DNA of 46,112 nt from Thiogranum sp. (GTDB lineage: Bacteria; Pseudomonadota; Gammaproteobacteria; DSM-19610). The number at the start of each line of letters is the position of its first letter. Position 1 is the stretch's first letter. The notes under the pieces are model-generated. The model was not told the DNA's origin and ran no database searches. It saw only the letters and a list, made by a program, of their open reading frames with translations. Both the position numbers and the translations under genes were made by a program. The DNA lies in assembly GCA_046757125.1 (NCBI GenBank), contig JBHHXO010000001.1, positions 1 through 46,112 on the forward strand, given 5' to 3'. Below, piece by piece: positions 18,318 to 39,985 of the stretch.

Positions 18318-18371
18318 ACCTTGTCCTTTGTGTATGTGTTGGAGAAAGAGTCCGGCATTTACCCGGGCATG

Positions 18372-20234: not shown

Positions 20235-20251
20235 GTTGTTATCCGCTGAGT

Positions 20252-20284
20252 AAAAAAGGGGCGGGCACGGGCCCACCCCTTTTT
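20252..20284 (-). terminator. Intrinsic terminator after the MshA-like pilin
   Basis: Minus strand AAAAAGGGGTGGGC-CCGT-GCCCGCCCCTTTTTT. Confidence 0.75.
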
Positions 20285-20306
20285 GGCGCCGGCAACCCTG
20301 TAGATA

Positions 20307-20696: not shown

Positions 20697-20830
20697 CTTT
20701 ACTGATCTCCTGAAAATGGCTGATAGCCCGCACACCTCCACTTATCGTCAAATGTTCGCTATACCTTTAGCCACTCAGTATTTTTCCGGGGTTGCGCGCG
20801 ATTCGCGCCTGCGCGTTTGACGGACATCCA

Positions 20831-20940
20831 AGGGAACTCTGATTAATTCGTCATTCCGGCGTATGCCGGAATCCAACAGGCTGATTTTTATGGATTCCGG
20901 CATACGCCGGAATGACGGAAAATGAAGTGATCAGAATACC
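20831..20940. repeat. REP-doublet/MITE-like palindromic element
   Basis: Perfect 27-bp inverted repeat CGTCATTCCGGCGTATGCCGGAATCCA (20849-20875) / TGGATTCCGGCATACGCCGGAATGACG (20891-20917). Each arm is itself a hairpin. Degenerate outer IR TCTGATTA/TGATCAGA. Confidence 0.8.
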
Positions 20941-21029
20941 AAAAGTCGTTGATTAATCGAAGATTTCTCATTGTTTCGGTTTGCTCGGCAATGATCTGCA
21001 AATCGTCTTGAATAACCCGCTGCCACGGG

Positions 21030-23959: not shown

Positions 23960-24021
23960 GGTCTTGTCCGTCAGTCCGGTGTCAGCTTCCGGTTTATACA
24001 GCCGGTGCGTTGTTGAACACG

Positions 24022-24675
24022 CTATCCATGCCGCACTACAAGGGTATAGAGCTGCAGGCGCGTCTCCGCGCGGGGATAGTCTGTAGTCCGGAAATCCACT
24101 TCCTGCCAGAAGAATTTCCAGGGCATTGCCTCCAGCTCCTGCAGGTAACGCAGCAGGTCCGAATAACCGCCTTCGACAACTATTTCAATGTGGTAACGAC
24201 CCAGGCCGTTGCCGCTTTCCTGTTCCCCGGCATCCGGGTCTGTCAGCGGCTCGGTGCGGGCCTGCAGTGATTTCAGCTTCAGTCCGCCGTGGCCGGCAAG
24301 CACCTGCTCGAGCATGTCGGCAGCCTGTGCAGGTTCTACAAGCGCACCCAGCCGGGCAACGATCCTGTCATCGAGCGCATCCCGCTGCGCAACAAGCGCG
24401 TCACGCTTTTGCCGGCGTTCGGTCAGCGGGTCGCGCTCCGATTTGTAATTGAACAGCTCGGCCTGCTGGCGGGTGGCGCCCAGTTTTGTTTCGAGTTCGG
24501 ATATGCGCTGGCTGGAAGCCTGCTGTGCCTTGAGCATGGGCTGTAAAGCGAATGAATCCACCAGCAGATATACCACTATGATAGTCGCTGCCAGTAGCAG
24601 GATGCGTTCGCGCAATTCCAGGGCGTCGATTCGATCCACCCAGCGCTGGATCTGTGCTGTCGGAGCTAGCGCCAT
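24022..24675 (-). CDS. MshJ/GspM-like alignment protein
   Basis: LELRERILL followed by a TM segment and coiled coil; GGYSDLLRYLQELEAMPWKFFW and YP...LYTL. Confidence 0.78.
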   Translation of the reverse strand: MALAPTAQIQRWVDRIDALELRERILLLAATIIVVYLLVDSFALQPMLKAQQASSQRISELETKLGATRQQAELFNYKSERDPLTERRQKRDALVAQRDALDDRIVARLGALVEPAQAADMLEQVLAGHGGLKLKSLQARTEPLTDPDAGEQESGNGLGRYHIEIVVEGGYSDLLRYLQELEAMPWKFFWQEVDFRTTDYPRAETRLQLYTLVVRHG

Positions 24676-25271
24676 GCTACGGTTTCCCCGTGGTTACGCA
24701 GTTCGAAGCGGAGTTGAGGTTTGTCCGGGTCGATGCGGGTCATGGACAGGGTTTCAAACGGGGATGTGGACAGGTCCGGGCGTCTGGCGAGCTGCTGGAC
24801 ATAGGCGGGGACCAGTTTGGCGTCCAGCGTTACACCACGCAGCTCGATCTGTCCTGCGCCGTTGACCTTCACGCCTTCCAGCCACAGGCCGGGTATACGC
24901 TGTTCATCGAGTACACTGAACTGCCCGGCAAAACCCGAGCGATGCCGGGTCGCCAGTCGGTCAAATTGTGTCAGCAGATAGTTGCGCTGATCGATATCAG
25001 CCTGCAGCTGTTCTATTTCCTTATCCAGACCCTGCGTGTCGGGAGCCTGGTAGCCGGCTTCCAGTGAGGCCACCTGGCCCTGCAGGCTATCGAGCTGTTG
25101 CTGCAGGACCGTGGTGGTGCCTTTCATTCCGTCCAGCGTCCAGCGCGCGTGTGCGAGGATAACCAGCAGCAGGACCAGTACCGCAGCGGCGATCTGTGTC
25201 AGCGTGGTTGCGGAAAACACCTTGACCTGTTTTCTGAATACCGGTTGATAGAGATTGATCTGTTGGTGCAT
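24666..25271 (-). CDS. MshI (C-terminal part)/PilN-like protein
   Basis: MHQQINLY, TM segment, coiled coil and GLWL...VPAYVQQL. Confidence 0.75.
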   Translation of the reverse strand: MHQQINLYQPVFRKQVKVFSATTLTQIAAAVLVLLLVILAHARWTLDGMKGTTTVLQQQLDSLQGQVASLEAGYQAPDTQGLDKEIEQLQADIDQRNYLLTQFDRLATRHRSGFAGQFSVLDEQRIPGLWLEGVKVNGAGQIELRGVTLDAKLVPAYVQQLARRPDLSTSPFETLSMTRIDPDKPQLRFELRNHGETVAWR

Positions 25272-25276
25272 ACGGT

Positions 25277-26023
25277 TTATGCCACGCTTTCCAGTGGTGA
25301 AGATTCAGTAGCGATCGCTTTCAGGTAGGCGCGTTCCAGGTTGTCCGCCGCGAAAGTCCGGCAGCAGTCCTGCGGGCTGCCGATAAAGCGCACCTCGCCC
25401 TGGTGCAGAATGGCCAGCCGGTCGCACAGGGATTCGACGTCATTCAGCAGGTGCGTGGTGAAGAACAGGGTCTGTCCACCCTGTCTGGCTTCCAGCAGAT
25501 AGTCCTTGAACAACGCGCGTGCCTTGGGATCGAGTCCGCTCATGGGTTCGTCCAGTACCAGCAGATCGCGCCGGCTCAGGAAACAGGTCGCCAGCCCGAG
25601 TTTTTGTGCCATGCCCTTGGAATAGGTGCGTACCGGCCGTGACAGGGCGGCCAGGTCGAGGTCGAGGCAGTGAAAGATGCGTTCGACCTCGCTGCGTGCG
25701 TAGGAAGTGCCGTGCAGTTCCGCCATATAGCGCAGAAATTCACGACCGGTCAGGTAGTAGGGCGGGCTAAAGCGTTCCGGCAGAAAAGCCAGTCGTTTGC
25801 GCGCCTGCGTCTGGTGATGCGGCGTGTCAAAAATCCGGATTTCACCCTGGTCAATCTGACAAAAATCCAGCAGTGACTTGATCAGCGTGGTTTTTCCGGC
25901 GCCATTCATTCCCACCAGGCCGAAGTATTCGCCCGGTTTCACCCCTAGATTTACGCCTTTTAGTACGTTCTGGCCCTTAAAGCCCTTGTACAGGCGGTTG
26001 ATGCAAATAGCATTTTCCTGCAT
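25277..26023 (-). CDS. ABC transporter ATP-binding protein
   Basis: GMNGAGKTT, YSKGM, LDEPMSGLDP and TTH motifs. Confidence 0.92.
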   Translation of the reverse strand: MQENAICINRLYKGFKGQNVLKGVNLGVKPGEYFGLVGMNGAGKTTLIKSLLDFCQIDQGEIRIFDTPHHQTQARKRLAFLPERFSPPYYLTGREFLRYMAELHGTSYARSEVERIFHCLDLDLAALSRPVRTYSKGMAQKLGLATCFLSRRDLLVLDEPMSGLDPKARALFKDYLLEARQGGQTLFFTTHLLNDVESLCDRLAILHQGEVRFIGSPQDCCRTFAADNLERAYLKAIATESSPLESVA

Positions 26024-26119
26024 GGCACGGGATCAGAAGCAAGAAACAGGCCGGGTCGGGAATACGTAATGCCAGCGGCGGCAAGGTTCCGTTTGGAATT
26101 ACATGGTTCAGGGGGAATA

Positions 26120-26145
26120 AAAAAGCCCGCCGAAGCGGGCTTTTT
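26120..26145 (-). terminator. Strong (bidirectional-type) intrinsic terminator after the module A pilin
   Basis: Minus strand AAAAAGCCCGC-TTCG-GCGGGCTTTTT(T). Confidence 0.88.
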
Positions 26146-26196
26146 AAATAAATGTATCCAGAGGCTTTCCGGATAGATCACTCAGATGTGTAGGTG

Positions 26197-26868
26197 TTAC
26201 AGCTGCCGGTATACACCACCGCAGTTGCCCTGGGGGTTTGCAGCGGTAACCGCCCATACACCACCGGCTACGCAGGTGCCGGGGTTGGCATTGCCTGACC
26301 GGCCGTTCTGGAATATCCCGGTGCCGGGAACGCCGTCATCGATCTTGCGGTCCAGCTCTGCCATGGCCGCAACAGGGATATTGCGCCCGGTCCAGAGTTC
26401 GTGGCTCTGGCCGGAAGTGCCCGCTGCCTCACTGCCAAAGCTGAGGTTCATGTTTCCGCCAAAAGCGTTTGGAGGGCAACGCGTGGAAATACAGTTCCAG
26501 CCATTGTTATTGCCATTTACGCCACCACCATCATAATTACCGGTAATGAATCCTGCCGCAGCCAGGTGCAGCCAGACGCGGCCACGTTCGTTGTTAGTGC
26601 TGATCTGGCCGTTGCCATTGCCGTTCATGCCGGCCGGCACACCGGAAATATTGGCGTCCGCAACGCGGTAGTCCCCCGGCAGCGCCTTGTAGCGGTCCTG
26701 AAAGGCAAAAAATGCCGCCTTGATGCCGCTCGCCTGGTCTGCCAGGTTGCGTACCTTGGCGTTGGTAATCATTTCCTGACCCTTGAGCACACCACCCAGC
26801 AGTAAACCGATAATCACCAGTACGATGGCGATTTCGACCAGAGTGAAACCTCGCTGATTCCTGTCCAT
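26197..26868 (-). CDS. Type IV pilin-like protein, probable major subunit of module A
   Basis: QRG|FTLVEIAIVLVIIGLLLGGVLKGQEMI, DRYKALPGD and LDRKIDDG; 4 Cys; GGAG RBS; downstream terminator. Confidence 0.85.
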   Translation of the reverse strand: MDRNQRGFTLVEIAIVLVIIGLLLGGVLKGQEMITNAKVRNLADQASGIKAAFFAFQDRYKALPGDYRVADANISGVPAGMNGNGNGQISTNNERGRVWLHLAAAGFITGNYDGGGVNGNNNGWNCISTRCPPNAFGGNMNLSFGSEAAGTSGQSHELWTGRNIPVAAMAELDRKIDDGVPGTGIFQNGRSGNANPGTCVAGGVWAVTAANPQGNCGGVYRQL

Positions 26869-26889
26869 ACCTGTTCTCCGTCAATAAAT

Positions 26890-27636
26890 TTAATCACTGG
26901 CTGGCGTCTGTCCCTGGAGCCGCTCCAGCTGCCCGGACAGAAACCTTAATTCGTGGGGATCGGTAATCTGGCCGTTTGCCAGCAGTCCACCAATCACGAT
27001 CTGAGCGGCTTCTGTCTCGCCCATATCCTCGAGTACGAAGATATCCATTTGTTGCGCCCAATGAGGAACATGGGCTCCTGTCGCTTTATCGGCCAGGGCT
27101 TTTGCGTACTTGAGCGCCAGTGGCAAATCTTCCAGGCGGTGACGCGCGATCAACACCGAGTGGGCCAGCCAGCGCCACCGGGTATCGGGTGATTCAAGGA
27201 ATTTTTGATAAATAAAATCAAGCATTTGTCTTTGCCGAACCGGGTCCGGGACTTCGCCGTACAGGCGCGCGGCAGCCAGCAGCGGATACTGGCCCGCCGG
27301 GTCGAGATCCAGGCTGGCCCGCAGCCAGCCGCGCACTTTTCGGTAGTCCAGGTCCCTGAAAGGAATGCTGATACCGGGCTGGTTGTCGAACACCTGCAGC
27401 CACAGGTTGAGAAACTTCGACAGGGCTATGGGGTCGCCGAGGCTGGTGACCATCAACAGCTCTGCTGCCGGGGCGTTCGGGAGCGCGTCAGCCGCCGCCC
27501 GCGCCGGGGGTTGTGCGTGATGCCAGCCGATCTGCAGGCCGAGGCCCAGCAGCAGTACAGCCAGTACCAGTCCCGGAACCTGGTTCACCGGCCGTTCGCC
27601 GGGTCGGTTGATGGTATTGAATATGACCGCGGACAT
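26890..27636 (-). CDS. Hypothetical membrane-anchored helical protein
   Basis: Start placed at ATG 27636 just after the permease stop. One TM segment, then LWLQVFD...LDLDP...YP. Confidence 0.7.
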   Translation of the reverse strand: MSAVIFNTINRPGERPVNQVPGLVLAVLLLGLGLQIGWHHAQPPARAAADALPNAPAAELLMVTSLGDPIALSKFLNLWLQVFDNQPGISIPFRDLDYRKVRGWLRASLDLDPAGQYPLLAAARLYGEVPDPVRQRQMLDFIYQKFLESPDTRWRWLAHSVLIARHRLEDLPLALKYAKALADKATGAHVPHWAQQMDIFVLEDMGETEAAQIVIGGLLANGQITDPHELRFLSGQLERLQGQTPASD

Positions 27637-27644
27637 GGAGGTGG

Positions 27645-28412
27645 TCAGAAGTTCTTGCGGTACAGGTCGAACAATGCAACGCCGGACAACAGCAACGCGT
27701 AGATCAGGGTCTGTACTGCTACAGGTCCAAGTACGTCGATAGAGGCGGGGTACAGCAACCACTCGGTGCGTGTAAAGTGACCCAGGTCGGGTAACAGGTA
27801 GGCCAGGGCATCCACGACGCGGGTCAGGACGTACCGGGACGTTTCCGCCTGGTTGGACAAGGGGCCGTGTGCCATCAACTGAATGGACGCGATGCTGCGT
27901 GCCAGCAGGTAAAAAAGTATCGAGGCCGAAATGGACGCCGTGACCTGGCTGAAGGCGAAGGCAAACAGCAGGCTGAAGCCACATACCAGCAGCAGTTCCA
28001 GTACCAGCGATATGCCCCAGGAGATACTGGAGGCCCACGGTGACAGAAAGATAACCAGGGAGAACAGGGGGATGGCAGTGAACGCGGCAATCAGCGCGTA
28101 GCCGCCCAGTTTCCCGAGGTAATAGCCCGCGCGCGGTACCGGCAGGGACAGCATGAGTTCGACGGATTTATCGCTGAAGTCGCGGTTCACGCTGGTGGTT
28201 ACGAACAGGATGATCAGCAATGCCGCGGCCAGGCGCAGGATCGACGCGGTAATGGCGACCCGGGTCTGCACGGTTTCGGTGATAGCCAGATCGCCGGTAA
28301 AGGATGCGATACCAAAACCGGCCGCTACCAGAAACAGCACCAGCCAGACGAAGCGGGTACGGAAGGCCTCCAGCGCGGTATATCGGGTGATGGCGATGAC
28401 CGGTCCGATCAT
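27645..28412 (-). CDS. ABC-2 type permease
   Basis: About six hydrophobic segments; LSLPVPRAGYYLGKLGG; C-terminal DLYRKNF. Confidence 0.85.
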   Translation of the reverse strand: MIGPVIAITRYTALEAFRTRFVWLVLFLVAAGFGIASFTGDLAITETVQTRVAITASILRLAAALLIILFVTTSVNRDFSDKSVELMLSLPVPRAGYYLGKLGGYALIAAFTAIPLFSLVIFLSPWASSISWGISLVLELLLVCGFSLLFAFAFSQVTASISASILFYLLARSIASIQLMAHGPLSNQAETSRYVLTRVVDALAYLLPDLGHFTRTEWLLYPASIDVLGPVAVQTLIYALLLSGVALFDLYRKNF

Positions 28413-29104
28413 GGCAGCACCCCGGCGCTGACCATGCGGTTGAACAGGATGTTGGGCGATAACCAGATGACCTGGTCGTCGAATTCGTTGCCGGTAGTGG
28501 TGTTATAGGGCTTTTCGACGAAGCAGCGGTCACCATTGGTGTTTTCTGATTCGTCATTACTTCCGTAAGAGGTCTTGCCGCCTGACCACAATACCGCAGG
28601 GACGTTTTCCGCTACCGTGCCCAGTTCGCTATCGTCAGTGCAATCTGCCGGGCGTGTCAGCGATACCCGCAATATACCAGTGCTTGTCCCCTGTATCGCC
28701 AGGGGAAAGGGGGCATTGACCGACAACGCCGGATTTGCGAAGGCACCGTTCACGACGTAGCCGACTGGAAAACCCCAGGGGTCCAGGCCACTGTCCAGTC
28801 CCAGCGTTACCCATGGAAGCGTTCCTGAATTTGGATCGAAGGCGGTAACACCTGCTGCACAGCCGTTTTCCAGGCCATCAGTGGGCACATCAGTATCCGG
28901 GCAGGGCAGGCGGCCGTTTACAATGGCAAAACCGATCAGCGCTTCACGCGCCCGCTCCATGAGTACATCGTTTTCGGTACGTCTTTCCTGCTCCTTCTGG
29001 GTTGACAGTGGTGCCAACAGTCCGCCAATCAGCAGGGCGACAATGACCAGTACGATGGACATCTCGATCAGTGTAAAGCCGTTGTGAAAATGCCGGTGTA
29101 TCAT
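28409..29104 (-). CDS. Minor pilin/pseudopilin
   Basis: NG|FTLIEM, EALIGFA...GRLPCPD, GTLPW and DPWG. Confidence 0.8.
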   Translation of the reverse strand: MIHRHFHNGFTLIEMSIVLVIVALLIGGLLAPLSTQKEQERRTENDVLMERAREALIGFAIVNGRLPCPDTDVPTDGLENGCAAGVTAFDPNSGTLPWVTLGLDSGLDPWGFPVGYVVNGAFANPALSVNAPFPLAIQGTSTGILRVSLTRPADCTDDSELGTVAENVPAVLWSGGKTSYGSNDESENTNGDRCFVEKPYNTTTGNEFDDQVIWLSPNILFNRMVSAGVLP

Positions 29105-30255
29105 GGCGCTACCACCTGTAACTGGTCGTTGCTGCCTGCATCGACGGGCAGGACCTCAAAGAGAGTATCGTCATCCCTGTTTTCGCCGGAATCCAGCAGG
29201 TCATCGTCACTTGCTATAGGTGATCGATTGTTCTGTGAGAGCCCGGGCAATGGAGGGCCGCCTGCGATGAGTAATGCTCTGATGTCATTCGTATTCGGAG
29301 GGTCGCTAACTTTGAGCAGCGTAGTAGCAAGGCAGTTGCTTGCGCCTTCAACGCAGTCGGCTGACACGACATACCAGATAACCTGATCCCAGCTGTTGGG
29401 CTGGAACCAGGCAGGTAAAGCCGCTGTTTTCAGTGGAGCATTCCATCCGGTTTGCGTGCTGCAATTCGGGTTGCTTATAGTCGTTGGAACCATGCCGGCG
29501 AAAACTGTGTTGTCACAAGTACCGGTGCCTGCAGGTGCAGGATTCGGAAAGTAGCCATTTTCGCTGTAGTAGGTATTTAGTGAGCTTGATACTTCGTTCA
29601 GCACACGGCGCTCAATTGCCTGCATGAGTTCGTCACGGGTGATACCGATCAACTGATCATTGAAATCCCCGCCTGCGGCGGTAACAAAAAAGGCATCGTT
29701 ATTGGCGTTGTCTGCTTCCAGGTAACGCAGAATATTATTCTGCTGGCCACCCGTACGGGATTGACCCCGCAGGCTTTGCCCGGGCGCGATGATAATGGCG
29801 GCATAGCGGGTGGCCCCGCCGTCAATAGTCAGCGCGGGTACTGTCTCACTGTTTATTGCCGAGGTGCCTGCGAACAGGGGGTCAACGATATACCAGAGCC
29901 GCTCACCGCTGCTGTCCCTGAGGTCAGGCAGACCCAGCGTTTTCCACGGCAATCTGAATGTGGTGTTGCCTGTGCAGGGTGGCGGTGCGCTGTCGCCGCT
30001 ATTGTTGACATCAGGACAGGGCAGTTCTCCTGGCCGGTTTTGTGATTTCAGTGCGAACCCGATCAACGCGGCTTTTGCCTCACCCAGCGCCATGGCGGTA
30101 TCAGCCGCCCGGTCCAGTTCGGATGGTGTCTGGTTCAGGCGCTTCAACAGGGTATAACTCGCTGCCAGCAGCACCAGCGTCAGCATGACCAGCAAGGCAG
30201 CACCGCGTTGCTGGCGGAGTGAGGGGCGCATACGCTGGATTATCTGCGTTTTCAT
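29101..30255 (-). CDS. Large PilX/GspK-like minor pilin
   Basis: QRG|AALLVML (no E5), ALIGFA...GELPCPD, LPWKTLG and a Cys-containing C-terminal extension. Confidence 0.7.
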   Translation of the reverse strand: MKTQIIQRMRPSLRQQRGAALLVMLTLVLLAASYTLLKRLNQTPSELDRAADTAMALGEAKAALIGFALKSQNRPGELPCPDVNNSGDSAPPPCTGNTTFRLPWKTLGLPDLRDSSGERLWYIVDPLFAGTSAINSETVPALTIDGGATRYAAIIIAPGQSLRGQSRTGGQQNNILRYLEADNANNDAFFVTAAGGDFNDQLIGITRDELMQAIERRVLNEVSSSLNTYYSENGYFPNPAPAGTGTCDNTVFAGMVPTTISNPNCSTQTGWNAPLKTAALPAWFQPNSWDQVIWYVVSADCVEGASNCLATTLLKVSDPPNTNDIRALLIAGGPPLPGLSQNNRSPIASDDDLLDSGENRDDDTLFEVLPVDAGSNDQLQVVAP

Positions 30256-30693
30256 CTACTCTTCACTTTCAGTAGACAAAACCTGCTGATACGCCTCGCT
30301 GACTGTGCCGGTCTGCGGGTCGTATACCTGGCCGGGTTTCATCAGCCTGGGTGCGCCTGCTGCGGAAGGTTTGAAGTGCACGCTGCCATTCCTGACCAGA
30401 TTCACCCGCGGGTGCCTGCGGTTGCCGTTGTGGATTTCCGGCTTGCCGTTTATCCATACCTCCTTTTTGCCGGACTTGCCGATCAGCGTACCGTTCAGCC
30501 TGAAAGGCCGGGGCGCTTCCGTCACCTGTGCTGTGCTACCGGCGCCCGTCGCCGGTGTTATGTCACGGGTCCCGTTGTCGAGCTTTGCGCGCTGTTCAGC
30601 CGTTGTGAACAGGGTGCCGAAATCATCTGCCTGCAGGTTCGATGTCAGTATCGCGAGCAGCAGGCCGGTGGCGGGGTGTTTGAAAATACTCAC
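30256..30693 (-). CDS. Hypothetical exported protein (MshK/PilP-like position)
   Basis: Signal peptide, GTLFTTAEQRAKLD and LNG...VWING; translationally coupled to neighbours. Confidence 0.65.
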   Translation of the reverse strand: MSIFKHPATGLLLAILTSNLQADDFGTLFTTAEQRAKLDNGTRDITPATGAGSTAQVTEAPRPFRLNGTLIGKSGKKEVWINGKPEIHNGNRRHPRVNLVRNGSVHFKPSAAGAPRLMKPGQVYDPQTGTVSEAYQQVLSTESEE

Positions 30694-31316
30694 AATGAAC
30701 CCTCCTCTGAACCGTCTGGGCGCCGTTTCACGGTATACCAGGCTATTTCACAACTGGCGGATATATTGGCCTTGTCCGCGGCAATACCCTCCGCACCGAA
30801 CATCGGCTTGAGCGAGCAGCCGCGCAAGCGGTAGATTGCCGGCCTCTCGTGATTCAGTTCGGCAAAGAAACGAATCAGGTCCACTTCGTGCGCCAGTTCC
30901 AGCTGTACCGACATGGGGCTGGCGTACAACTGGTAATGTTCTGTGTAATCCTGGTCTGACAATGTCAGGGGGTGTTGCTGCTTCAGGCTGTACTGCAAAT
31001 TGTACAACCGGTTGGCGCGGCCGCTGTTGCGCATCGATTCGATCCAGATCAGGCGGGGCTCTTCGCCGATAAAACCGCGCTGCTGAAGTTCCCTGTAACG
31101 TTGCTGCGAGGTACGCAGTATGTTGTCGGCTTCGACTGCCAGGCGATAATCCGTGCGTACGGAGTCCAGGCTGGAACGCGCGCTATCCAGACGACGCTCC
31201 CGGGCGTCCCTGAATGTGTCGCTGGTCCAGACCAGGGCTGCTGACAGCAGCAGTACTCCCAGCAACGCCAGCGCGGGTCGGCGTAGTTCGGAAGGGTGAA
31301 CTTCAAACCGTTCCAT
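30690..31316 (-). CDS. PilO/GspM-like alignment protein (start uncertain, 31316-31364)
   Basis: TM segment, coiled coil and a C-terminal domain with LAHEVDL; follows the PilM-like gene. Confidence 0.6.
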   Translation of the reverse strand: MERFEVHPSELRRPALALLGVLLLSAALVWTSDTFRDARERRLDSARSSLDSVRTDYRLAVEADNILRTSQQRYRELQQRGFIGEEPRLIWIESMRNSGRANRLYNLQYSLKQQHPLTLSDQDYTEHYQLYASPMSVQLELAHEVDLIRFFAELNHERPAIYRLRGCSLKPMFGAEGIAADKANISASCEIAWYTVKRRPDGSEEGSL

Positions 31317-32856
31317 GATCGATCTCCATGGTGACGCGAAGCTCGAATTCAGCTTCGCTGTCACGGTCGTTGTTGCCTATCGCACCCTGTATGCTTGCAT
31401 CAGCCTGCGTATTGAGTGGCCGGCGGGTTATCGTTACCGCATGGACGCCGGGCCGTTCGGCTATCCACTTCACCAGCCTGTCGATCTGGCTGTGCGCTTC
31501 AACGTAACTGCCGTTGAAATGCCGCAGCTTTCCCTTGATGTGGCTGACCAGGTAGTTATCCATATTCTGGACCCGGTCTGCCTGCCGGGCGCTGTCCTGC
31601 GATGCTGTGGCGGCGTCCTTGTCCGGACTGGCAAACCAGTCGAAGCGTTTCAGCTGCAGGTTGGGCTGGCGTTCGAACGCATTTCCAACCAGGGAGAACA
31701 GGCTGGCCAGGTCGGTCCGGTGAGCCTCCAGTGTATTCGCAAGCTGAATAGCTTCCCGCATGGCACGGGCATCTTCGGCCGTAACCGGTAGCTGACGCGC
31801 CGCCTGTTGATAATTCGTGTTTACCTGTGCTGCTACACTGGCAACGTTGCGTGCTTCACTGGACATCGCCATCCCGTCCACCACATTTATGCCGCTGTAG
31901 GTGGCTGCTGTCACGGCGATCAGCCACATGGCGGCGCGTAAACCGGCCTGCGCGTGCCAGGTGTTCAGCCGCTTCAGGTGTCGTGGCGTGGCGTAGTGAT
32001 TAGGAACCCGGCGGGTATTCAGCAGGTAGGCAAACAGGGCATCACTGATCCGGGCGTCAGGGTGCTCACGAAAACCCGCGCGTTGCGCTATCTCCGACAG
32101 GTTTGCCGGGTGATAACTGATGCCGGTTTCATCCGCGCAGGCAGTGCGCATCGCGTCTGCTCGGGTCGAATCGGTGAGCGCATGGATTTCCAGTTCGGCG
32201 CCGTAGGGGATCAACCTGAGTGTAGTGAGGTAGCGATGCGTTTTGTGCGCCTCGTCCAGGATTATCCTGCAATAGTCTTCGGGCGAAGAGGCGCTGATGG
32301 GTGCAAGGCGGCTGAACAGCACCTTGTTGTCGCACACATACGTCTCGCGCAGACCTTCACCCGGTTGTTCTGTGATAACAAGGATATGGCCGTTGTCTGC
32401 AGCCAGATGCCTGACCAGGTGGTGCGTAATCAGGGGAAGTGAATAGATGCCTGCCAGAGGGATGCGCAACTCGTTCAACAGGTCGAGCAGCGGCTCGACG
32501 TTGTCGCGGTTGGTGAGTGCGCTGAAAAGAACGCGACTGTCGCGGCGTCCCTCTTTCATTCGACCTGTGATGCGGCTGTAACGAAACGGTGTGGTGCGAA
32601 ACAGTTTGTTTGCCTGCCGTTCCTGCAGTCTTGCCCGGTCCCCGCCATAGGCGTGAGGCAGCAGCTCTTCGCGGAATTCTTCTTCTATCAGGTCAACCAG
32701 CAGCGCGACGGGGCGTGCATCCGGGCTGCTCAGCGCCCTGCGCAGCTGCCCGTAGCCTTCCTCGTCGAGCGTGAAACGGCCGCCGGCACTGGCACCGTGT
32801 CGAGCGGCATGAAACAGGGTAATGCTTTTATCGGCGAGATACAGTATCCGGGACAT
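31303..32856 (-). CDS. PilM/PilN(GspL)-like alignment protein
   Basis: ~300-aa cytoplasmic domain, single TM segment and periplasmic domain; follows the platform gene. Confidence 0.6.
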   Translation of the reverse strand: MSRILYLADKSITLFHAARHGASAGGRFTLDEEGYGQLRRALSSPDARPVALLVDLIEEEFREELLPHAYGGDRARLQERQANKLFRTTPFRYSRITGRMKEGRRDSRVLFSALTNRDNVEPLLDLLNELRIPLAGIYSLPLITHHLVRHLAADNGHILVITEQPGEGLRETYVCDNKVLFSRLAPISASSPEDYCRIILDEAHKTHRYLTTLRLIPYGAELEIHALTDSTRADAMRTACADETGISYHPANLSEIAQRAGFREHPDARISDALFAYLLNTRRVPNHYATPRHLKRLNTWHAQAGLRAAMWLIAVTAATYSGINVVDGMAMSSEARNVASVAAQVNTNYQQAARQLPVTAEDARAMREAIQLANTLEAHRTDLASLFSLVGNAFERQPNLQLKRFDWFASPDKDAATASQDSARQADRVQNMDNYLVSHIKGKLRHFNGSYVEAHSQIDRLVKWIAERPGVHAVTITRRPLNTQADASIQGAIGNNDRDSEAEFELRVTMEIDHGTV

Positions 32857-32860
32857 GGCG

Positions 32861-34066
32861 CTACCTCGTTACCGTCCCGAGAATATCGTACACAGGGCCA
32901 AGCACTGACAGCATCACCCAGCCGAGCATGGCGCCCAGTATCAGGGTCAGGGTCGGTTCGATCATGGTTTGCACGCGCTCTATGGATTCGCGCACATCGC
33001 GGTTATAGAAGTAGCTGACGTTCTCCAGCGATGTGTCCAGCGCACCGCTGCTTTCACCTACTTTCATCATGCGCAACACCAGCGGCGGAAACAGCCCGGT
33101 ATTCTCGAAGCTTGCAGTGAGGCCCACGCCTTCGCCAATCTGTTTGCGCACTCTCTGCAGGGCCTCGGCGACCACTTTGTTGCCGACCAGCGATTCGCCC
33201 ATGCGAATACAGTCGAGCACGGTTACGCCGGCTTTATAGAGCAGCGCGAAGTTGCTGGTAAAGCGCGCCAGTATTATTTTCTGGTAGATCGGTCCTACCG
33301 GCAGCAGTCGCAGTTTCAGGCGGTCGACCTGGTAGCGGCCGTTTTCGCTGTAGCGTGCCCAGAAGCGCATACCGAAGAAGATGGCGAGCGGGGCTGCCAG
33401 CAGAATATACCAGTATTGAGTAATGAATTCGGATGCCAGAATCAGTGCCCGTGTATGAGCCGGAATCGATTCACCCATGTTCTGGATAAATCCGACCAGT
33501 TCGGGGACCAGGTATACCATCAGAAACACGATGACGCCTGTGACGATGATACCCACGAATGCCGGGTACATGATGATTTTCCTGGTGTGTGAAGCCAGCT
33601 CGTCCTGCCACTTCAGCGATTCCGTAAGCCGTTGCAGTACGTCAGCGAGCATGCCGCTCTCTTCGCCGGCGGCAATAAGGCTGACAAATATCGGTCCGAA
33701 TATGGCAGGGAAAGCAGCCAGCGCCTGGGAAAGCGTTTTGCCACCCTCTATGTCCTCTATAAGTGAGGAAATGATTTCCCGAAAACGCTGGTTGTCGATA
33801 CTGTCGCGCAGGTCGCGGAGTGAATCCAGGATGGGGACACCGGCCTTGGAAAGTTGCTCCAGGTGGAAACAGAAGGTAACCAGCTCGGGCCGGCCGACGC
33901 GGCTGCGGCGTAAACTGAAGCGGCTGTTGCGAGCCGGTTTGAAATCGATGAGGTCCAGCCCCATGCGGGTCAGGCGCAGCTCGAGGTCATCGTCGTTGCT
34001 GGCCTCGATGCGCCCCAGCACGGTCTTCCCGTAACCGTCTACCGCCTTGTATTCGAATGCTGCCAT
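32861..34066 (-). CDS. GspF/PilC-family platform protein (module A)
   Basis: FCFHLEQLSKAGVP, GEESGML, MYP, GESSGALD and IEP motifs. Confidence 0.9.
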   Translation of the reverse strand: MAAFEYKAVDGYGKTVLGRIEASNDDDLELRLTRMGLDLIDFKPARNSRFSLRRSRVGRPELVTFCFHLEQLSKAGVPILDSLRDLRDSIDNQRFREIISSLIEDIEGGKTLSQALAAFPAIFGPIFVSLIAAGEESGMLADVLQRLTESLKWQDELASHTRKIIMYPAFVGIIVTGVIVFLMVYLVPELVGFIQNMGESIPAHTRALILASEFITQYWYILLAAPLAIFFGMRFWARYSENGRYQVDRLKLRLLPVGPIYQKIILARFTSNFALLYKAGVTVLDCIRMGESLVGNKVVAEALQRVRKQIGEGVGLTASFENTGLFPPLVLRMMKVGESSGALDTSLENVSYFYNRDVRESIERVQTMIEPTLTLILGAMLGWVMLSVLGPVYDILGTVTR

Positions 34067-34090
34067 GTGTTTCTGTTTCTCTGACCCCGG

Positions 34091-35791
34091 TTACAGGCGA
34101 TCGGTGAGATCGACAACCCTTGCAACTTCTTCCAGTGTGGTGCTGCCATCCAGTACGCGCCGCAGGCCGTCTTCGGCAATGGGCCGGAATTCCTTGCTTA
34201 AGGCGAGGTCGTAAATCTCGCGCCGCGGGGCGCGCCGCGCAATGAGGTCGTCCATGTCGTGGTCCACTTTCAACAGTTCGGTAATTGCCATACGTCCCTT
34301 GTAACCGAAATTGTTGCAGTGATCGCAACCCCGGGCACGGTAGATGACCGTACTTTCACCCTTGTCCAGTCCCAGCAGCTCGGATTCGAGTTCGTTGGAA
34401 GCGTCTTCCTTGCGGCAATGCGGACACAGTTTGCGGATCAGGCGTTGCGCTACGATGCCGATAATATTGCCGGCGAGAATGTCCGGGACTATGCCGAGGT
34501 CGAGCAGGCGCGGTATGGCGCCGACCGCCGAGCTGGTATGCAGCGTCGAATAGACCTGGTGGCCGGTCATGGCGGCGCGCAGCGCCATGTCCGCGGTATC
34601 TTCGTCACGCACCTCACCAACCAGGATAATATCGGGATCCTGGCGCAGCATGGAACGGATGCCGCTGGCAAAATCCAGTTTTGCGGCGGTATTTACCGAC
34701 GTCTGGCGGATCATGGACATGGGGTATTCGACCGGGTCTTCCAGGGTCATGATGTTGACTGACTCGTTGTTCACGTAGTTCAGCATCGAATACAGCGTGG
34801 TGGTCTTGCCGCTGCCGGTGGGTCCTGTTACCAGCAGGATGCCTTCGGGGCGTGCCATCATCAGGCGCAGAGCCGCCAGAGCCGTATCACTCAGACCCAG
34901 TTGATCCAGTGGCACGATACCCTTGTTGCGATCCAGTATGCGCAGCACGATGTTTTCGCCATAGGTAGTCGGTTGTGCGGATACACGAAAATCGATCGGC
35001 CGGCCGAACAGCGTTAACGAGATATGACCGTCCTGCGGTGCACGGGTTTCCGCGATATTCATGCCGGATATGACTTTCAGTCGCACCGCGATTGCCGACC
35101 AGTAGTTCTGGTGCAGGCTGCGCACCTGTCTCAGTACGCCGTCGATACGGTAGCGGATACGCAGGAAGCCGTGCTCGGGCTCGAAATGAATATCGGATGA
35201 ACCTTTCTTGACCGCGTCCGACAGTATGGCGTCGACAAGGCGTACCAGAGGCTGACTGTACTCTTCGGATTCGCCATGCAGTGTGTTGTAATCGACCTGG
35301 CCGGTTTCGATTTCGCGCAGAATACCGTCCACGGACAGTTCAAAACCGTAAAACTGGTCTATTGCGTTTTCAATTTCGGATTCGCCGGCCAGTACCGGGT
35401 GTATATCAATCTGTCCGCCCAGCAGGGCGCGCAGCTGGTCGATGGCGACCACATTGAAAGTATCGGAGATCGCAACGGTCAGCAGGTTTTTCTGCCGGTC
35501 TATCGACAGCGGCATGATCTGGAAGCGGCGTGCGGTATCCTTGCCGACCAGTTGCAGGACTTCAGTATCGACCACGACCTTGCCCAGGTCGACACTTTCG
35601 TGACCCAGCGCTTCACCAAGGACATCGCGTACCACTGCCTCGGTGGCGAAACCCAGGCTGACAATAATTTTTCCCAGTTGCTCCTTGCACTTTTTCTGCT
35701 CGGTCAGGGCGATGTCCAGCTGGTCCTGGGTGAGGATGCCCTTCTCTATCAGCAGGTCACCGATGCGCTTCGGTTTGGCGACGGCGCTCAT
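34091..35791 (-). CDS. GspE/PilB-family assembly ATPase with MshEN motif (module A)
   Basis: RIGDLLIEKGILTQDQLDIALTEQ, SSDIHFEP, GPTGSGKTT, RQDPDIILVGE and CxxC...CxxC. Confidence 0.92.
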   Translation of the reverse strand: MSAVAKPKRIGDLLIEKGILTQDQLDIALTEQKKCKEQLGKIIVSLGFATEAVVRDVLGEALGHESVDLGKVVVDTEVLQLVGKDTARRFQIMPLSIDRQKNLLTVAISDTFNVVAIDQLRALLGGQIDIHPVLAGESEIENAIDQFYGFELSVDGILREIETGQVDYNTLHGESEEYSQPLVRLVDAILSDAVKKGSSDIHFEPEHGFLRIRYRIDGVLRQVRSLHQNYWSAIAVRLKVISGMNIAETRAPQDGHISLTLFGRPIDFRVSAQPTTYGENIVLRILDRNKGIVPLDQLGLSDTALAALRLMMARPEGILLVTGPTGSGKTTTLYSMLNYVNNESVNIMTLEDPVEYPMSMIRQTSVNTAAKLDFASGIRSMLRQDPDIILVGEVRDEDTADMALRAAMTGHQVYSTLHTSSAVGAIPRLLDLGIVPDILAGNIIGIVAQRLIRKLCPHCRKEDASNELESELLGLDKGESTVIYRARGCDHCNNFGYKGRMAITELLKVDHDMDDLIARRAPRREIYDLALSKEFRPIAEDGLRRVLDGSTTLEEVARVVDLTDRL

Positions 35792-36993
35792 GGTGTTTTC
35801 CCCGCTTCCAGTTCCCGGATCCGGTTGTCCAGTTGCCGGGTATTGAACAGCGCGCTGTGGTCGGCGGCCAGTCCCTGTGCCTTCAGGTAATATTCCAGGG
35901 CCTGTTTCTGCAGGCCGAGCTGATCGAGGCTGATTGCCAGGTTGAATGCGTAGTCAGGCTGGATCGGGTCGATGCGCTGTGCTTCAAAGTAGGCTTGCTG
36001 TGCTTCCTTCCACTGTCCCGCGGACGCGTAACGGTTACCCAGGGCAAAGTGAAGCTGGGCGTTATCGCGGTCGCTCTGCAGCCAGTGCTTGAGTTGACTG
36101 GTTTCCTGCAGGCTGTCGCGTGAGTTGCCCAGCGAACCCAGGGCAATCTGTGCGGTTTTGTCTGCCGGGTTGGCTTTCAGTACGCGTTCGTAATAGTAAC
36201 GTGCCACACGCAAGTCTCCCTGGTGCATGGCGATGCCCGCCAGTCCCAGCGCGGCATCACGGCTGTCCGGGTTACGCTTCAGGGCTTTCCGGTAGAGTTG
36301 CTCCGCTTCGACATAGTTTTGTTGCTGGTACGCCTGATAGGCGTTCTGAATCAATGGATGAACAGCCCGGATCCTGCGGCTCCTGTGGATCTCGATGCGT
36401 TGGGCGGGCTGAGCAACGGCTGCATCGGATATGTCGGCAGTTCCGGCCGCCTGTGCGTCTGGTTGCCGGGGTGAGGTCGGCACAGGTGTTGCGGGTACAA
36501 AAGCCGCCGCTGTGCGTTCAGTTACAGCCGGTGCCGGTAACGGCTCGGTGGCCGGCGGCGGGTTAGTCTCCGGAGCCGGGACATCGATCAGGGTTGCCGT
36601 GTGCGGGGTGGCCGGTATCACTACCCGATCACTGCGCCACAGGTAGTAGGCACCTACAATCACGATGATCGTGACAAAACCGGACAGAAAGTACAGGGCC
36701 TTCTTTTGCCAGGCGGTGGCGGGTGTGGCAACCAGCGCAGCAGCTGTTTTTGCCCGCTCCCGGGGTGGCTCCGCATCAGCAGCCTCGTCGGCTGCGGAAT
36801 TTTTATCGACAACGAATGCATCCGTCTCGGTTTGCAGCTCTTCCACCAGTTGCGTCGCTGCATTCAACGGTTCCAGTTGCATGTCAGGCTCATCCGCCGG
36901 CTGTGCCTGTTCTGTTGCGCTTTCGGCAGGGGCCGGCTTGTCCTGTTCCTGCTGCGTCTCTGCCCGGCGCAATGCGTCCATCAAAAGGCTCAA
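35788..36993 (-). CDS. TPR-repeat membrane protein (MshN/GspB-like)
   Basis: MSLLMDALRRAE N-terminus, TM segment, Pro/Ala-rich linker and TPRs (FALGN, YAFNLAISLD). Confidence 0.78.
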   Translation of the reverse strand: MSLLMDALRRAETQQEQDKPAPAESATEQAQPADEPDMQLEPLNAATQLVEELQTETDAFVVDKNSAADEAADAEPPRERAKTAAALVATPATAWQKKALYFLSGFVTIIVIVGAYYLWRSDRVVIPATPHTATLIDVPAPETNPPPATEPLPAPAVTERTAAAFVPATPVPTSPRQPDAQAAGTADISDAAVAQPAQRIEIHRSRRIRAVHPLIQNAYQAYQQQNYVEAEQLYRKALKRNPDSRDAALGLAGIAMHQGDLRVARYYYERVLKANPADKTAQIALGSLGNSRDSLQETSQLKHWLQSDRDNAQLHFALGNRYASAGQWKEAQQAYFEAQRIDPIQPDYAFNLAISLDQLGLQKQALEYYLKAQGLAADHSALFNTRQLDNRIRELEAGKTP

Positions 36994-38621
36994 TTGCGCT
37001 TCCTCTGTTCATTGGCGTAGCGTGGCCCCAGCGGCGCTGTCGGGTCGGGAAGGTAATCGGTATAGGTATCCATTTGTTGATCGATACTGGCGATAACACG
37101 CGGTCGCAGGAAAATAACCAGCTCGGATTTCTTTATCTTGTTGTTGCGGTAGGTGAATGCGTCACCCACGTAATCAAGTTCGGTCAGACCGGGAATACCC
37201 TGGTCATTGAGCTGGATGGAATCCTGGATGAGACCGCCGAGTACGGCGATCTGGCCACTGCGCACGCGCAGTACGGATTCCATCTCCCGTACCTGTATCT
37301 GCGGTATCTGGCTGACAATGTCATTTATCGCCAGCGCCGGGTTGGGGTCGTTCACGAATCCGGTGACACGTGAAATCGTGGGCCGTACGTTCAGGCTGAC
37401 GGCATCTTCGCGGCTGACCTGCGGCGTGACCGACATGACAAAACCGACGGGCACGGTATGCGGCGTACTGGTAAAGGTCGTTTGCGAATTGGTCTGGTTG
37501 GTTACAGTATCGGCTTCCAGCGTGAAGTAGACGACGTTTTCCACCACTTTCAGCAAGGCGGTCTGGTTGTTAATGGCCATGATCTTGGGGCTGGACAGCA
37601 CTTTCACATTGCCGAATTCCTGCAGCATCTTTACCGAACTGGCAATGCTGCCCCAGCTTTTGTTGGTGAGGTAGTCGACGGTAAATACCGGTGGAGAATT
37701 AAGGTTCGAACCCAGCAGCTCCTGCGAAACACTCAGGCCGGTTCCGTTGTCGGCCAGCACCGACCAGTCGACGCCGAACTGGTAGTTATCGTTCAGTTCC
37801 ACCTCTACAACGGTGGCCTCGATCAGGACCTGTCGCTGTGCACTGGTTACCAGGCGGTCCAGGTATTCCTGGATGAGCAGGTGCTGGGCCTGGGTGGCGC
37901 GCGCGGTCAGCATGCCGGTTTCGGCGTTGACAATGACCGAGATATCAACAGTGCTGTCTTCGCTGCCCAGGCCGAGAAAGCTGGCAATGTTGGTGCGCAG
38001 CTGTTTCCAGAACCGGTTTTCCGAGGTGGTCGTTACCGAGGTGCTGGAGCTGTTGGATCCGCTGCTCGATCCCCCGCTGCTGCTTCCGCCGCCGGAACCT
38101 TCCAGGGCAGACTGTCCGGTTGTGGCAATCTGGGTGGAAACGCCGTTGCTGCTGCTGCTGCGGCGGGTCAGGTTGACGTAATCAATATAGTAGCTGCGCA
38201 GGTACGGCTGGTCCGGCTCCACTACCAGCAGGTCGTCCTCGAAGTGATAACGGATCGGCACCTGGGCTGCAATCCGGTCGAGTATCTGCAGCAGTGTCTG
38301 ATCGATCGCGTTGAGGGTGACGGTACCGCTCAGGCCAGGGTGGACGTCGATATTCATTTTGGCGTCGCGCGCCAGCGTGAACAGCAGTTCTGCCAGCGGG
38401 ACCCCGGTAATGACCACGCTGTAGGTTTCCTGCGCAACAGGCGGCGTTGGTTCCGGGACTACCGGCGCACGTGTCACAGGGCTGGGAATTTGCCGGGAGA
38501 GGTGTGAACGGTCCGCTTTCGGAGTGTTTTCCAGGTGCCCGGGTGACGGGCGGTCCGGCGTCGGGACGCAGCCGTACCCCGCCAGTAAAAAGGCCAGCAG
38601 CAAAAATCTAGCTGTATTCAT
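36990..38621 (-). CDS. Outer-membrane secretin, MshL-like lipoprotein
   Basis: Lipobox-like LAGYGC, Ser/Gly-rich insert, RQVLIEATVVEVEL, VLSSPK...NNQ and KSELVIFLRP. Confidence 0.9.
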   Translation of the reverse strand: MNTARFLLLAFLLAGYGCVPTPDRPSPGHLENTPKADRSHLSRQIPSPVTRAPVVPEPTPPVAQETYSVVITGVPLAELLFTLARDAKMNIDVHPGLSGTVTLNAIDQTLLQILDRIAAQVPIRYHFEDDLLVVEPDQPYLRSYYIDYVNLTRRSSSSNGVSTQIATTGQSALEGSGGGSSSGGSSSGSNSSSTSVTTTSENRFWKQLRTNIASFLGLGSEDSTVDISVIVNAETGMLTARATQAQHLLIQEYLDRLVTSAQRQVLIEATVVEVELNDNYQFGVDWSVLADNGTGLSVSQELLGSNLNSPPVFTVDYLTNKSWGSIASSVKMLQEFGNVKVLSSPKIMAINNQTALLKVVENVVYFTLEADTVTNQTNSQTTFTSTPHTVPVGFVMSVTPQVSREDAVSLNVRPTISRVTGFVNDPNPALAINDIVSQIPQIQVREMESVLRVRSGQIAVLGGLIQDSIQLNDQGIPGLTELDYVGDAFTYRNNKIKKSELVIFLRPRVIASIDQQMDTYTDYLPDPTAPLGPRYANEQRKRN

Positions 38622-39985
38622 CCCTGTTCTTCCCTGTGCATGTCCGTGCCCATGGTTTGAAAGCGGGTTCGCAACGGGTCCAGCGAACGTAAATAGGGCT
38701 GGTGTCGTTGTATTCTCTCCGGTAAATCGGCCAGTGCGGCCAAAGCTTTTGTTTTGCTGTCGAATTCACCGAACAGAATATTCCAGCGCTGGCGTCCGGC
38801 TACCTCGCTCCGATACAGGTAAACATCGGGAAGGAGGCTGTTATATAGCGGTTTTTCAAGAAGTTTTTCCACGGTGCGCAAATCGTCGTTCTCGGTCAGC
38901 AATAACTGTATGGTCAGCTGCCTGCCGGCGGGCCGCTGCAGCCAGTCGTTCGAGGCCTGGAGGCGTTGCGATACCAGCGGCAGACCGCCGGAGGAGGGAC
39001 GGGTTTGCAGCGCAATCGCCCGCAATTCGTCAATATTTTGGCTAATTTGGGTGGCCGGGGTGATTGTGTCCGGGGGTGGTGGCGTGTAGTGGTTGAAGAC
39101 GGCGATACCGACAAGCGCAACTGCAGTGCCGGCACCCAGACCCGCAGCGAGACCTCCCGGGAGTAGTTGCGGGCGACCCGGGCTGGCGCCGTCGTAGCGG
39201 GCACGCCAGACATGTTTCCAGCACACGCGGCTGGATTGTGCAGCGAATGCGGCCAGCAGGGCCTTGTCGGCCAGAATATTCAGGCGCCGGATAAGACCGC
39301 GTGAAAATATCGCCAGTAGCCGATAGGCGGTTGCAGTAAAGAGATCATTGCCCCTGTAGCCGGCGCTGTGCAACCTGAAGCGAATGTAGTCCCTGATTTC
39401 CGCCATGCTCAGGGGCGACAGGTTGAAGCAGTGGCTTATGCGGTCGCGCAACTGACGAATTTCATGTTTTTCAATAAGATAGTTGAGTTCCGGCTGTCCG
39501 AACAGCACCAGTTGCAGGAGTTTGCTGTGGCGGGTTTCCAGGTTGGATAACAGCCGGATTTCTTCCAGCGTCTCGAGTGACATCTGCTGGGCTTCTTCAA
39601 CAAATACAACAACCTGTCGTTTGTTCCGGTGCGCTTCCAGCAGATAGTCCTGAAGCTGTTGTTGGAGCTGCAAATGCGGCGTGTCTACACCGGCCGGCAG
39701 GTTCAGTTCCAGTGCTATGGCGGCCAGGATTTCGTTGCGCGTAAGACCGGGATTGGTGAGGTACACCACATCGACAGAGTCGGGCAGCTGATCCTGCAAC
39801 ATATGGCATAGCATGGTTTTTCCGGTGCCGACTTCGCCGGTGACCTTGACCATGCCTTCACCGCGGGTAATGGCATAAAGCAGCGAGTTCAGAACCTCGG
39901 CACGCTGACCGCCACCGAAAAAATGCCGTGTATCGGGTGTGATGCGGAAAGGGGCGGCGGACAGTCCAAAGTGCCTGTTATACAT
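38618..39985 (-). CDS. ExeA/MshM-family AAA ATPase with a C-terminal SPOR-like domain
   Basis: MYNRHFGL..PF, GEVGTGKT, EEAQ, LFGQPEL, a TM segment and a TIQL...ILFGEF...PYLR tail. Confidence 0.88.
   Translation of the reverse strand: MYNRHFGLSAAPFRITPDTRHFFGGGQRAEVLNSLLYAITRGEGMVKVTGEVGTGKTMLCHMLQDQLPDSVDVVYLTNPGLTRNEILAAIALELNLPAGVDTPHLQLQQQLQDYLLEAHRNKRQVVVFVEEAQQMSLETLEEIRLLSNLETRHSKLLQLVLFGQPELNYLIEKHEIRQLRDRISHCFNLSPLSMAEIRDYIRFRLHSAGYRGNDLFTATAYRLLAIFSRGLIRRLNILADKALLAAFAAQSSRVCWKHVWRARYDGASPGRPQLLPGGLAAGLGAGTAVALVGIAVFNHYTPPPPDTITPATQISQNIDELRAIALQTRPSSGGLPLVSQRLQASNDWLQRPAGRQLTIQLLLTENDDLRTVEKLLEKPLYNSLLPDVYLYRSEVAGRQRWNILFGEFDSKTKALAALADLPERIQRHQPYLRSLDPLRTRFQTMGTDMHREEQG

Follow-up and report, generated by a model that had tools for sequence, protein, structure and literature searches.

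The stretch of DNA analysed here (the window) comprises 46,112 nucleotides of a Thiogranum sp. contig and carries, at 25277..39985, a cluster of 14 genes (module A) for a type IV filament machine with an ATP-binding cassette (ABC) module beside the pilin gene. The cluster is real and conserved, and combines a second MSH-like lineage of filament machine with an optional module of the Myxococcus PilGHI type; the literature searched, largely without subscription papers, holds no description of this cluster type or of a PilG-pilin complex. We put at slightly better than even odds (about 55%) the reading that the ABC genes form an ATP-driven pilin-handling module in this second, divergent MSH-like machine. 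New are the predicted pilin-PilG interface, the joint loss of the module with a pilin swap, the separate ATPase clade and the pilin fold. A first-pass annotation, made from the sequence alone, had proposed the gene order, which was borne out: all 14 open reading frames (ORFs) are intact and lie on the minus strand exactly as first described, with a base composition matching the remainder of the window.

38618..39985, minus strand: MshM/ExeA-like AAA ATPase with one transmembrane (TM) helix and a weak C-terminal SPOR match (AAA_22, E 1e-27; 43% over 271 aa to the MshM of a congener)
36990..38621, minus strand: secretin of the MshL family, A-type paralogue (TIGR02519, 252.3 bits against a cut-off of 250.2; 28-29% to the canonical MshL of congeners)
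35788..36993, minus strand: MshN-like TPR protein (Pfam TPRs; HHalign to the MshN family 99.5% over 201 columns, a TPR likeness that is partly generic)
34091..35791, minus strand: assembly ATPase (T2SSE) with an MshEN domain and cyclic di-GMP (c-di-GMP) motif, in its own clade (family scans; tree support 100/100)
32861..34066, minus strand: inner-membrane platform protein (T2SSF; PF00482, E 7e-51)
31303..32856, minus strand: likely PilM-PilN fusion of 517 aa, the marker of the machine (a lead from the Atlas only)
30690..31364, minus strand: bitopic protein at the PilO/MshJ position, labelled by position and topology (one TM helix; order conserved; HHalign to MshJ 0.6%)
30256..30693, minus strand: small exported protein at the MshK/PilP position (order conserved; HHalign to MshK 9.5%)
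29101..30255, minus strand: minor pilin 1, without Glu+5 by sequence, paralogue of minor pilin 2
28409..29104, minus strand: minor pilin 2 (N_methyl, E 1e-6)
27645..28412, minus strand: ABC-2-type permease, PilI homologue by full-length profile match
26890..27636, minus strand: PilG homologue, a membrane helical protein with an N-terminal TM anchor and a TPR-like solenoid; predicted pilin-binding subunit
26197..26868, minus strand: 223-aa type IV pilin of its own family, presumed major subunit, with a 7-residue leader
26118..26145, minus strand: intrinsic terminator-like hairpin between the pilin and ABC ATPase genes (z -4.9)
25277..26023, minus strand: PilH-like ABC ATPase of 248 aa with intact Walker A/B and signature motifs and no C-terminal extension

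The labels first given to the AAA protein, secretin, TPR protein, assembly ATPase, platform, prepilins, permease and ABC ATPase stood, the SPOR match of the AAA protein being weak and under cut-off (E 0.007). The permease likewise falls under the Pfam ABC-2 cut-off (E 1.5e-5), and family scans recognised two class III prepilins. Neither Pfam nor NCBIfam offers a family for the PilG-like, PilM/N-like, PilO-like, small exported or minor-1 proteins, and family scans of the PilO-like and small exported proteins gave no informative match. For the PilM/N-like protein there was no Pfam match and its profile found no sequence in the PDB; its neighbours in the Atlas, at 0.93-0.95, are groups with PilN or with PilM_2 in 32-79% of their members. 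The minor pilins are related, as claimed (27%, E 1e-12; HHalign 99.5% over 204 columns), and the start of the first is presumably PilX/GspK-like. The secretin lipobox is atypical in the window; in a simple pattern screen, 10 of 16 homologous frames had a clearer lipobox. The PilG-like gene starts with ATG at 27636.

The proposed terminator after the pilin gene also held up: the hairpin is strong, has a U tail and was equalled by none of 200 shuffles (26120-26145), and a consensus terminator scan missed it. A promoter scan returned four sites where 7.0 were expected, and no plasmid matches were found for the cluster. Beyond the hairpin, which separates it from its partners, the ABC ATPase gene ends 5 bases before the first gene of the neighbouring cluster, module B (25271-25277); thus, it may be transcribed with module B.

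Homologues and conservation of the ABC genes

By sequence profile, the three genes of the ABC module are distant homologues of Myxococcus pilG, pilI and pilH, a likeness to which the first-pass annotation had pointed. The comparison set consisted of 80 pilin loci of other taxa (3,765 ORFs), obtained by a motif scan of genome contigs. It included a Myxococcus sp. 1LA locus of order pilT-C-S-R-A-G-H-I-D, in which gene names were assigned by order; other Myxococcota loci were likewise assigned by the order pilA-G-H-I-D. The permease profile matched 21 proteins in the 80 loci, mostly near full length, among them PilI of the Myxococcus locus (L182; E 1.8e-14). HHalign of the PilG-like family against 18 PilG-position genes gave 97.9% (E 5e-13, 198 columns), and 95.7% against the seven Myxococcota rows only; the reversed alignment gave 0.7%, and the best of 30 column shuffles scored 25 against 93. 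The cluster's own TPR family and five other families did not match the PilG alignment. In the reverse search, a PilG profile ranked the PilG-like family 1-33 among 5,773 ORFs. Direct scoring of PilG proteins by the PilG-like profile was weak (best E 4e-4), so that the link needed profile-profile and reverse searches; a search outward from a Magnetococcia homologue yielded 10 matches, none a named PilG. For the ABC ATPase profile, PilH-type ATPases scored highest (140-201 bits, versus 68-112 for three others), and the window-type ATPases share a signature variant with PilH and form their own clade (100/98).

The PilG-like protein was modelled as one TM anchor plus a TPR-like solenoid (predicted local distance difference test, pLDDT, 88.6). 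Its fold search returned generic TPR solenoids only, the best at Z 11, within the usual range for helical repeats, and Foldseek gave none at E<=0.001. The solved sequences nearest to the permease profile are PmtD (E 1.2e-6) and NosY (E 0.002).

The module of Myxococcus xanthus (MXAN_5782-5780, TC 3.A.1.144.5; PMC3924187) is the closest named counterpart, its homologous subunits also adjoining a pilin gene. However, it serves a type IVa pilus (T4aP), whereas the window module accompanies an MSH-like machine. Gene order differs as well (I-G-pilin-terminator-H versus pilA-pilG-pilH-pilI), the ABC ATPase is shorter (248 versus 325 aa), the PilG-like protein lacks the C-terminal extension of Myxococcus PilG, and modules of the window type are dispensable in about one-third of machines, unlike PilGHI. 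Among Geobacteraceae, pilin loci carry a homologous permease, a PilG-like gene and a short, 247-aa ATPase; likeness to Geobacter Xap (xapD = GSU1501) runs through these unnamed loci (L154, L134) rather than through XapA-D themselves. Their context is T4aP, and one of them, L134, has an additional 472-aa membrane gene missing from the window. PilGHI-like matches were noted in many bacteria and left unresolved by Sharma et al. (PMC6060248). In an uncultured Pseudomonas sp. record (L143:4713-7269), a T4aP pilin gene adjoins genes for the permease, the PilG-like protein and the ABC ATPase; the module thus also accompanies T4aP in Gammaproteobacteria.

Conservation was surveyed in 401 genomes of the class, a sample in which relatives are not independent and whose tallies include the window's genome and one unpublished genome (G063). 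The PilG-like profile matched 57 genomes and the PilM/N-like marker, taken as presence of the machine, 83. Both occurred in 56 genomes and the machine only in 27; among the 318 machine-negative genomes, the PilG-like gene was found in one, an assembly of 1,400 contigs. Forty other loci, chosen for contig room (38 survey carriers and two congeners), were read. The permease gene lies immediately upstream of the PilG-like gene in 39, the fortieth being cut by a contig end, and 31 have a pilin of the same family no more than 4.5 kb downstream of the PilG-like gene (eight lack it and one is cut), as expected from the suggestion that the ABC genes are conserved next to the pilin. An orthologous ABC ATPase is nearby in 28 loci, in 25 of these after the pilin, and machine genes lie upstream of the cassette in 28. 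This gene order is far beyond chance. In split loci, including seven of the 31 pilin-linked ones in which the cassette lies away from the machine genes, the permease-PilG-like-pilin cassette is mostly intact, with machine and ATPase elsewhere.

Several loci depart from this pattern. In three genomes of 1.5-2.0 Mb (L104, L105 and L106, from G085, G384 and G257), the permease and PilG-like genes are kept with no pilin nearby and the machine marker elsewhere; two of these keep the ABC ATPase around an ORF labelled by eye as seryl-tRNA-synthetase-like. Two further loci (L093 and L098, from G038 and G371) carry the pilin gene in two copies.

The module had also been put forward as the defining trait of a filament subtype, and here the survey spoke otherwise: 27 of the 83 machines lack a PilG-like gene, and T4aP of other phyla use the same module. 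In a closed congener genome (G019), the machine is complete and the pilin belongs to the window's family, yet the permease, the PilG-like gene and an orthologous ATPase are all absent; this joint absence indicates that the trio is one dispensable unit. Of the machine-only loci, 20 of the 27 were read (four or five end at a contig edge), and none contained a permease or PilG-like gene; 11 machine-only genomes searched whole with the permease profile gave two weak partial matches and no orthologous permease. A divergent, undetected PilG was rejected for these 20 loci and 11 genomes. In the pilin tree, 24 of 29 pilins from ABC-positive genomes fall in one group (Shimodaira-Hasegawa-like approximate likelihood ratio test 90), and the pilin of G019 groups with other ABC-less pilins, apart from its congeners. 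Together with the absence of the trio, this placement suggests cassette exchange.

Placement of the filament machine

The cluster was first said to fit none of the canonical type II secretion system (T2SS), T4aP or mannose-sensitive haemagglutinin (MSHA) gene sets. ATPase clade, pilin family and gene order uphold this; however, the machine shares mshL, mshM and mshN with MSH systems. Because of these hallmark genes, the name of a second MSH-like lineage suits it better, on sequence grounds, than that of an unrelated subtype. For T2SS, the GspD, GspE and GspF models all score under cut-off and the ATPase lies outside the GspE clade. For T4aP, the PilB and PilQ models reach 507 of 675 and 98 of 284 bits, the ATPase lies outside the PilB clade, and the cluster has no separate pilMNOPQ set. 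The secretin scores 100.9 against 287.65 bits for the type IVb (T4b) model TIGR02520, and the pilin leader has only 7 residues. Elsewhere in the genome are T2SS-like (contig C24) and T4aP-like (contig C62) ATPase/platform loci and PilT-like genes.

With the MSHA/MSH pilus (type IVe pilus, PMC10191384; MSH model, 10.1101/576694), the window system has in common the MshL secretin, which lies just 2 bits above the family cut-off, the MshM-like AAA protein, the MshN-like TPR protein, an MshEN/c-di-GMP ATPase, a single locus and no PilT in that locus. Gain of mshN is said to mark MSHA (PMC10191384). The two differ in order (M-L-N-E-G-(PilMN)-(O)-(K)-pilins versus I-J-K-L-M-N-E-G-pilins), in pilins alike only in the N-terminal helix and in MshI, MshJ and MshK, which are barely detectable by HHalign (23%, 0.6% and 9.5%, at the expected positions). 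In the ATPase tree, module-A and MshE ATPases fall into two clades of their own (100/100 each), distinct from those of PilB and GspE. The branch joining these two clades has support of 73/49, and a grouping of module A with PilB is not rejected (approximately unbiased test, 0.195); in this fuller tree, 18 of 48 rows were dropped. A union of the module-A clade with PilB, seen in a first tree with two or three outgroups, was not settled by the fuller one. At L298 (G410:C1:682394-687031), the ATPase is a supported sister (98/96) of the module-A clade.

MshL was over cut-off in 154 of 400 genomes, often in two copies; the second copies belong to canonical I-J-K-L-M-N-E-G clusters, with no ABC genes in the stretches read. 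MSHA and window-type systems coexist in many genomes, and MshL-annotated loci conceal two distinct filament systems, often within one genome. Such a cluster may well pass the MacSyFinder MSH model, which asks for three of five mandatory genes and four in all (Denise et al., 10.1101/576694), and the supplementary system tables of that study may class such loci as MSH. That study linked no additional protein families to any system type, and the main text of Pelicic (2023) is without the term ABC (PMC10191384).

The 223-aa pilin, whose status as major subunit is presumed, has a large, variable head. By sequence it is no MshA: its profile match to pilins of the module-B (MshA) type covers 26 N-terminal columns only, and the match to MshA in the PDB is limited to residues 3-24. 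In its model (pLDDT 81.8), the best Foldseek match was 9iuf, a T4b pilin of the longus type from enterotoxigenic Escherichia coli (E 1.6e-4), and VIA placed 6t8s (Z 8.3, root-mean-square deviation 3.0, 118 aligned) beside 9iuf (Z 7.7, 4.0, 147 aligned). The predicted fold is nearest to T4b pilins and Clostridioides difficile PilA1, tied within 1 Z. Likeness to these (9IUF, TcpA 8UHF, CofA and PilA1) is structural, at 12-16% identity; unlike T4b systems, the window combines a short leader and Phe+1 with a secretin far under the T4b cut-off.

A bolder reading would make the machine a further type IV filament subtype apart from MSHA, with a T4b-like pilin, found in about one-fifth of the genomes sampled from the class. 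In the same reading, PilG would act as a general receptor for pilin, allowing the ABC ATPase to chaperone or extract monomers. This is a serious but tentative proposal, to which we give somewhat less than even odds. Considerably less probable, whatever the ABC module does, is a short periplasmic filament for protein secretion, in the manner of T2SS, in place of a surface pilus. The ExeA-like first gene and the lack of a retraction ATPase in the locus would suit it, as would an ATPase scoring about equally with the GspE and PilB models, under both cut-offs; however, an MshL-family secretin, an MshN-like TPR protein, an ATPase outside the GspE clade, the large size and variable head of the pilin and a T2SS encoded separately on contig C24 all speak against it.

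A predicted pilin-binding subunit and its probable role

A complex of the mature pilin and the PilG-like protein was predicted with an ipSAE of 0.84 (0.83-0.84 in three runs), and three controls scored 0.00; the mark applied is reached by 116 of 157 solved pairs and two of 215 mismatched pairs. At least 98% of contacts recur between runs, and neither partner has a pLDDT below 82. One helical face of pilin residues 32-60, the second half of the helix, including the near-invariant D58 and R59, is predicted to lie in the TPR groove of the solenoid. Since no solved relative of the PilG-like protein was found, recall of a similar complex is less likely. The prediction supports the earlier idea that the ABC complex handles pilin.

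On this model, the transporter would serve to handle pilin, not to export other cargo. The membrane-anchored PilG-like solenoid is predicted to grip unassembled pilin at residues 32-60, the part of the helix just outside the membrane; general type IV pilin architecture suggests that the gripped face is covered in the filament, so that only monomers would be bound. Using ATP, the ABC core would then likely act on this pilin in the inner membrane, by loading, releasing or clearing it. Its permease/ATPase pair may act on the membrane-embedded helix or drive the movement of its partner rather than pump a soluble cargo, as kinship with PmtD and NosY suggests. NosDFY is a mechanical driver. PmtCD has been proposed to export peptides from the membrane (PMC9974410) and to take amphipathic helices from it (PMC9974410; PMC7527219). 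Both are distant permease relatives with other partners and substrates, and the analogy is mechanistic only. Overall, the module would keep the pilin pool stable and assembly-ready, and machines with other pilin alleles would do without it.

In Myxococcus, PilGHI have counted as necessary for pili since 1998. They are listed as required for pilus assembly and PilA export (PMC3924187; PMC3724824), a motility defect has been tied to them (PMC5544727), and PilA was undetected in a Geobacter xapD mutant (10.1101/114900). These mutant data fit the pilin-handling reading. The xapD mutant is debated in the nanowire field, and the literature searched gives no mechanism for PilGHI. If the reading is true, ABC-driven pilin chaperoning or extraction would be a step of pilus biogenesis without a described mechanism in that literature. 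The named interface, pilin 32-60 in the PilG groove, makes the mechanism testable, also in Myxococcus, and the natural ABC-plus and ABC-minus versions of the machine allow comparison.

Several points weigh against pilin handling. The complex is a model from our own alignments, so the calibration holds roughly, and its controls were unrelated proteins, not the other pilins of the cluster. In the PilG-like family, conservation at the interface does not clearly exceed that of the remaining domain (p 0.17). Both faces of the pilin helix show higher conservation in ABC-positive than in ABC-less genomes (interface 0.62 versus 0.45, other 0.61 versus 0.47), a comparison with only three independent pairs. 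To these are added the eight of 40 loci without such a pilin nearby, the 27 of 83 machines without the module and an ABC ATPase tree that gives no resolved sister relation with PilH. Moreover, membrane insertion of type IV pilins generally proceeds without an ABC system.

Binding of pilin is also compatible with its modification, in which the ABC pair would move a donor such as a lipid-linked glycan and pilin would be presented to a transferase by the PilG-like subunit. Glycosyltransferase-like membrane genes indeed adjoin several pilGHI loci of other phyla (Wzy_C in two and YfhO in one of five scanned). However, the window's cluster has no such gene, the extra genes recurring in relatives encode a kinase and a cyclase, and the permease is nearest to PmtD and NosY, not to Wzm-type exporters; we regard modification as improbable. 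O-antigen-ligase-like or YfhO-like membrane genes stand beside pilGHI loci at L153:2810-4774, L169:6882-8594 and L144:1033-3357.

The recurring kinase and cyclase genes would suit a module that senses the pool of pilin in the membrane, with either gene product as its signalling partner. In 21 listed loci, the permease is immediately preceded by an antisense gene for a membrane protein of about 560-630 aa, with a C-terminal HATPase_c domain in all nine scanned; in 10 loci, the PilG-like and pilin genes are separated by an antisense adenylate/guanylate cyclase gene, confirmed in all five scanned. However, both are absent from the window's cluster and from a congener (G003), no physical link ties them to the module, and published mutants point to pilin level and piliation, which leaves a sensor slightly less probable still than modification. 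Examples of the HATPase_c proteins are L057:15066-16742 and L053:15046-16722, none of the nine scanned having a HisKA match at E 0.001; cyclase examples are L045:18279-19574 and L053:18286-19587.

Least probable is the export of a separate cargo (a polysaccharide or filament-associated protein, with pilin adjacency for co-regulation only), an idea first proposed for Geobacter Xap and also raised in the first-pass annotation: xapD has been described as a sugar ABC transporter required for growth on electrodes (PMC5585712), and about half of the exopolysaccharide depends on it (10.1101/114900), but the locus gave cargo export no support, the loci read contain no linked gene for a cargo or polysaccharide, the trio stays with the pilin when loci split and is lost with the pilin swap, and the xapD mutant also lacks PilA (10.1101/114900).

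The adjacent MSHA cluster

Downstream of module A lies a second filament cluster, with a junction inside it.

17391..25271, minus strand: module B, a canonical-type MSHA cluster (mshI, J, E, G, pilins, PilM-like) without its own secretin
23960..24021, minus strand: deletion junction in module B, mshK-L-M-N missing (about 4 kb in congeners)

In two congeners (G003 and G015), mshK-L-M-N lie between mshJ and mshE, where the window has about 60 bases. A contig of sequencing run X1, which may be the source sample, spans the junction without differences, and the genome (99% complete, 382 contigs) yielded no second MshL. Decay of module B was rejected: its genes are intact, with no excess of amino-acid changes (23/215 versus 24/185, p 0.54). 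With no relaxed selection, either the loss is recent or module B borrows the secretin of module A, which in this genome may also serve the adjacent MSHA pilus.

Near the start of the window, an in-frame TAG lies at 553-555 inside the essential gene dnaN (160-1263), and a low-depth X1 contig has the same letters; it is either an error in a thinly covered assembly or a case of readthrough.

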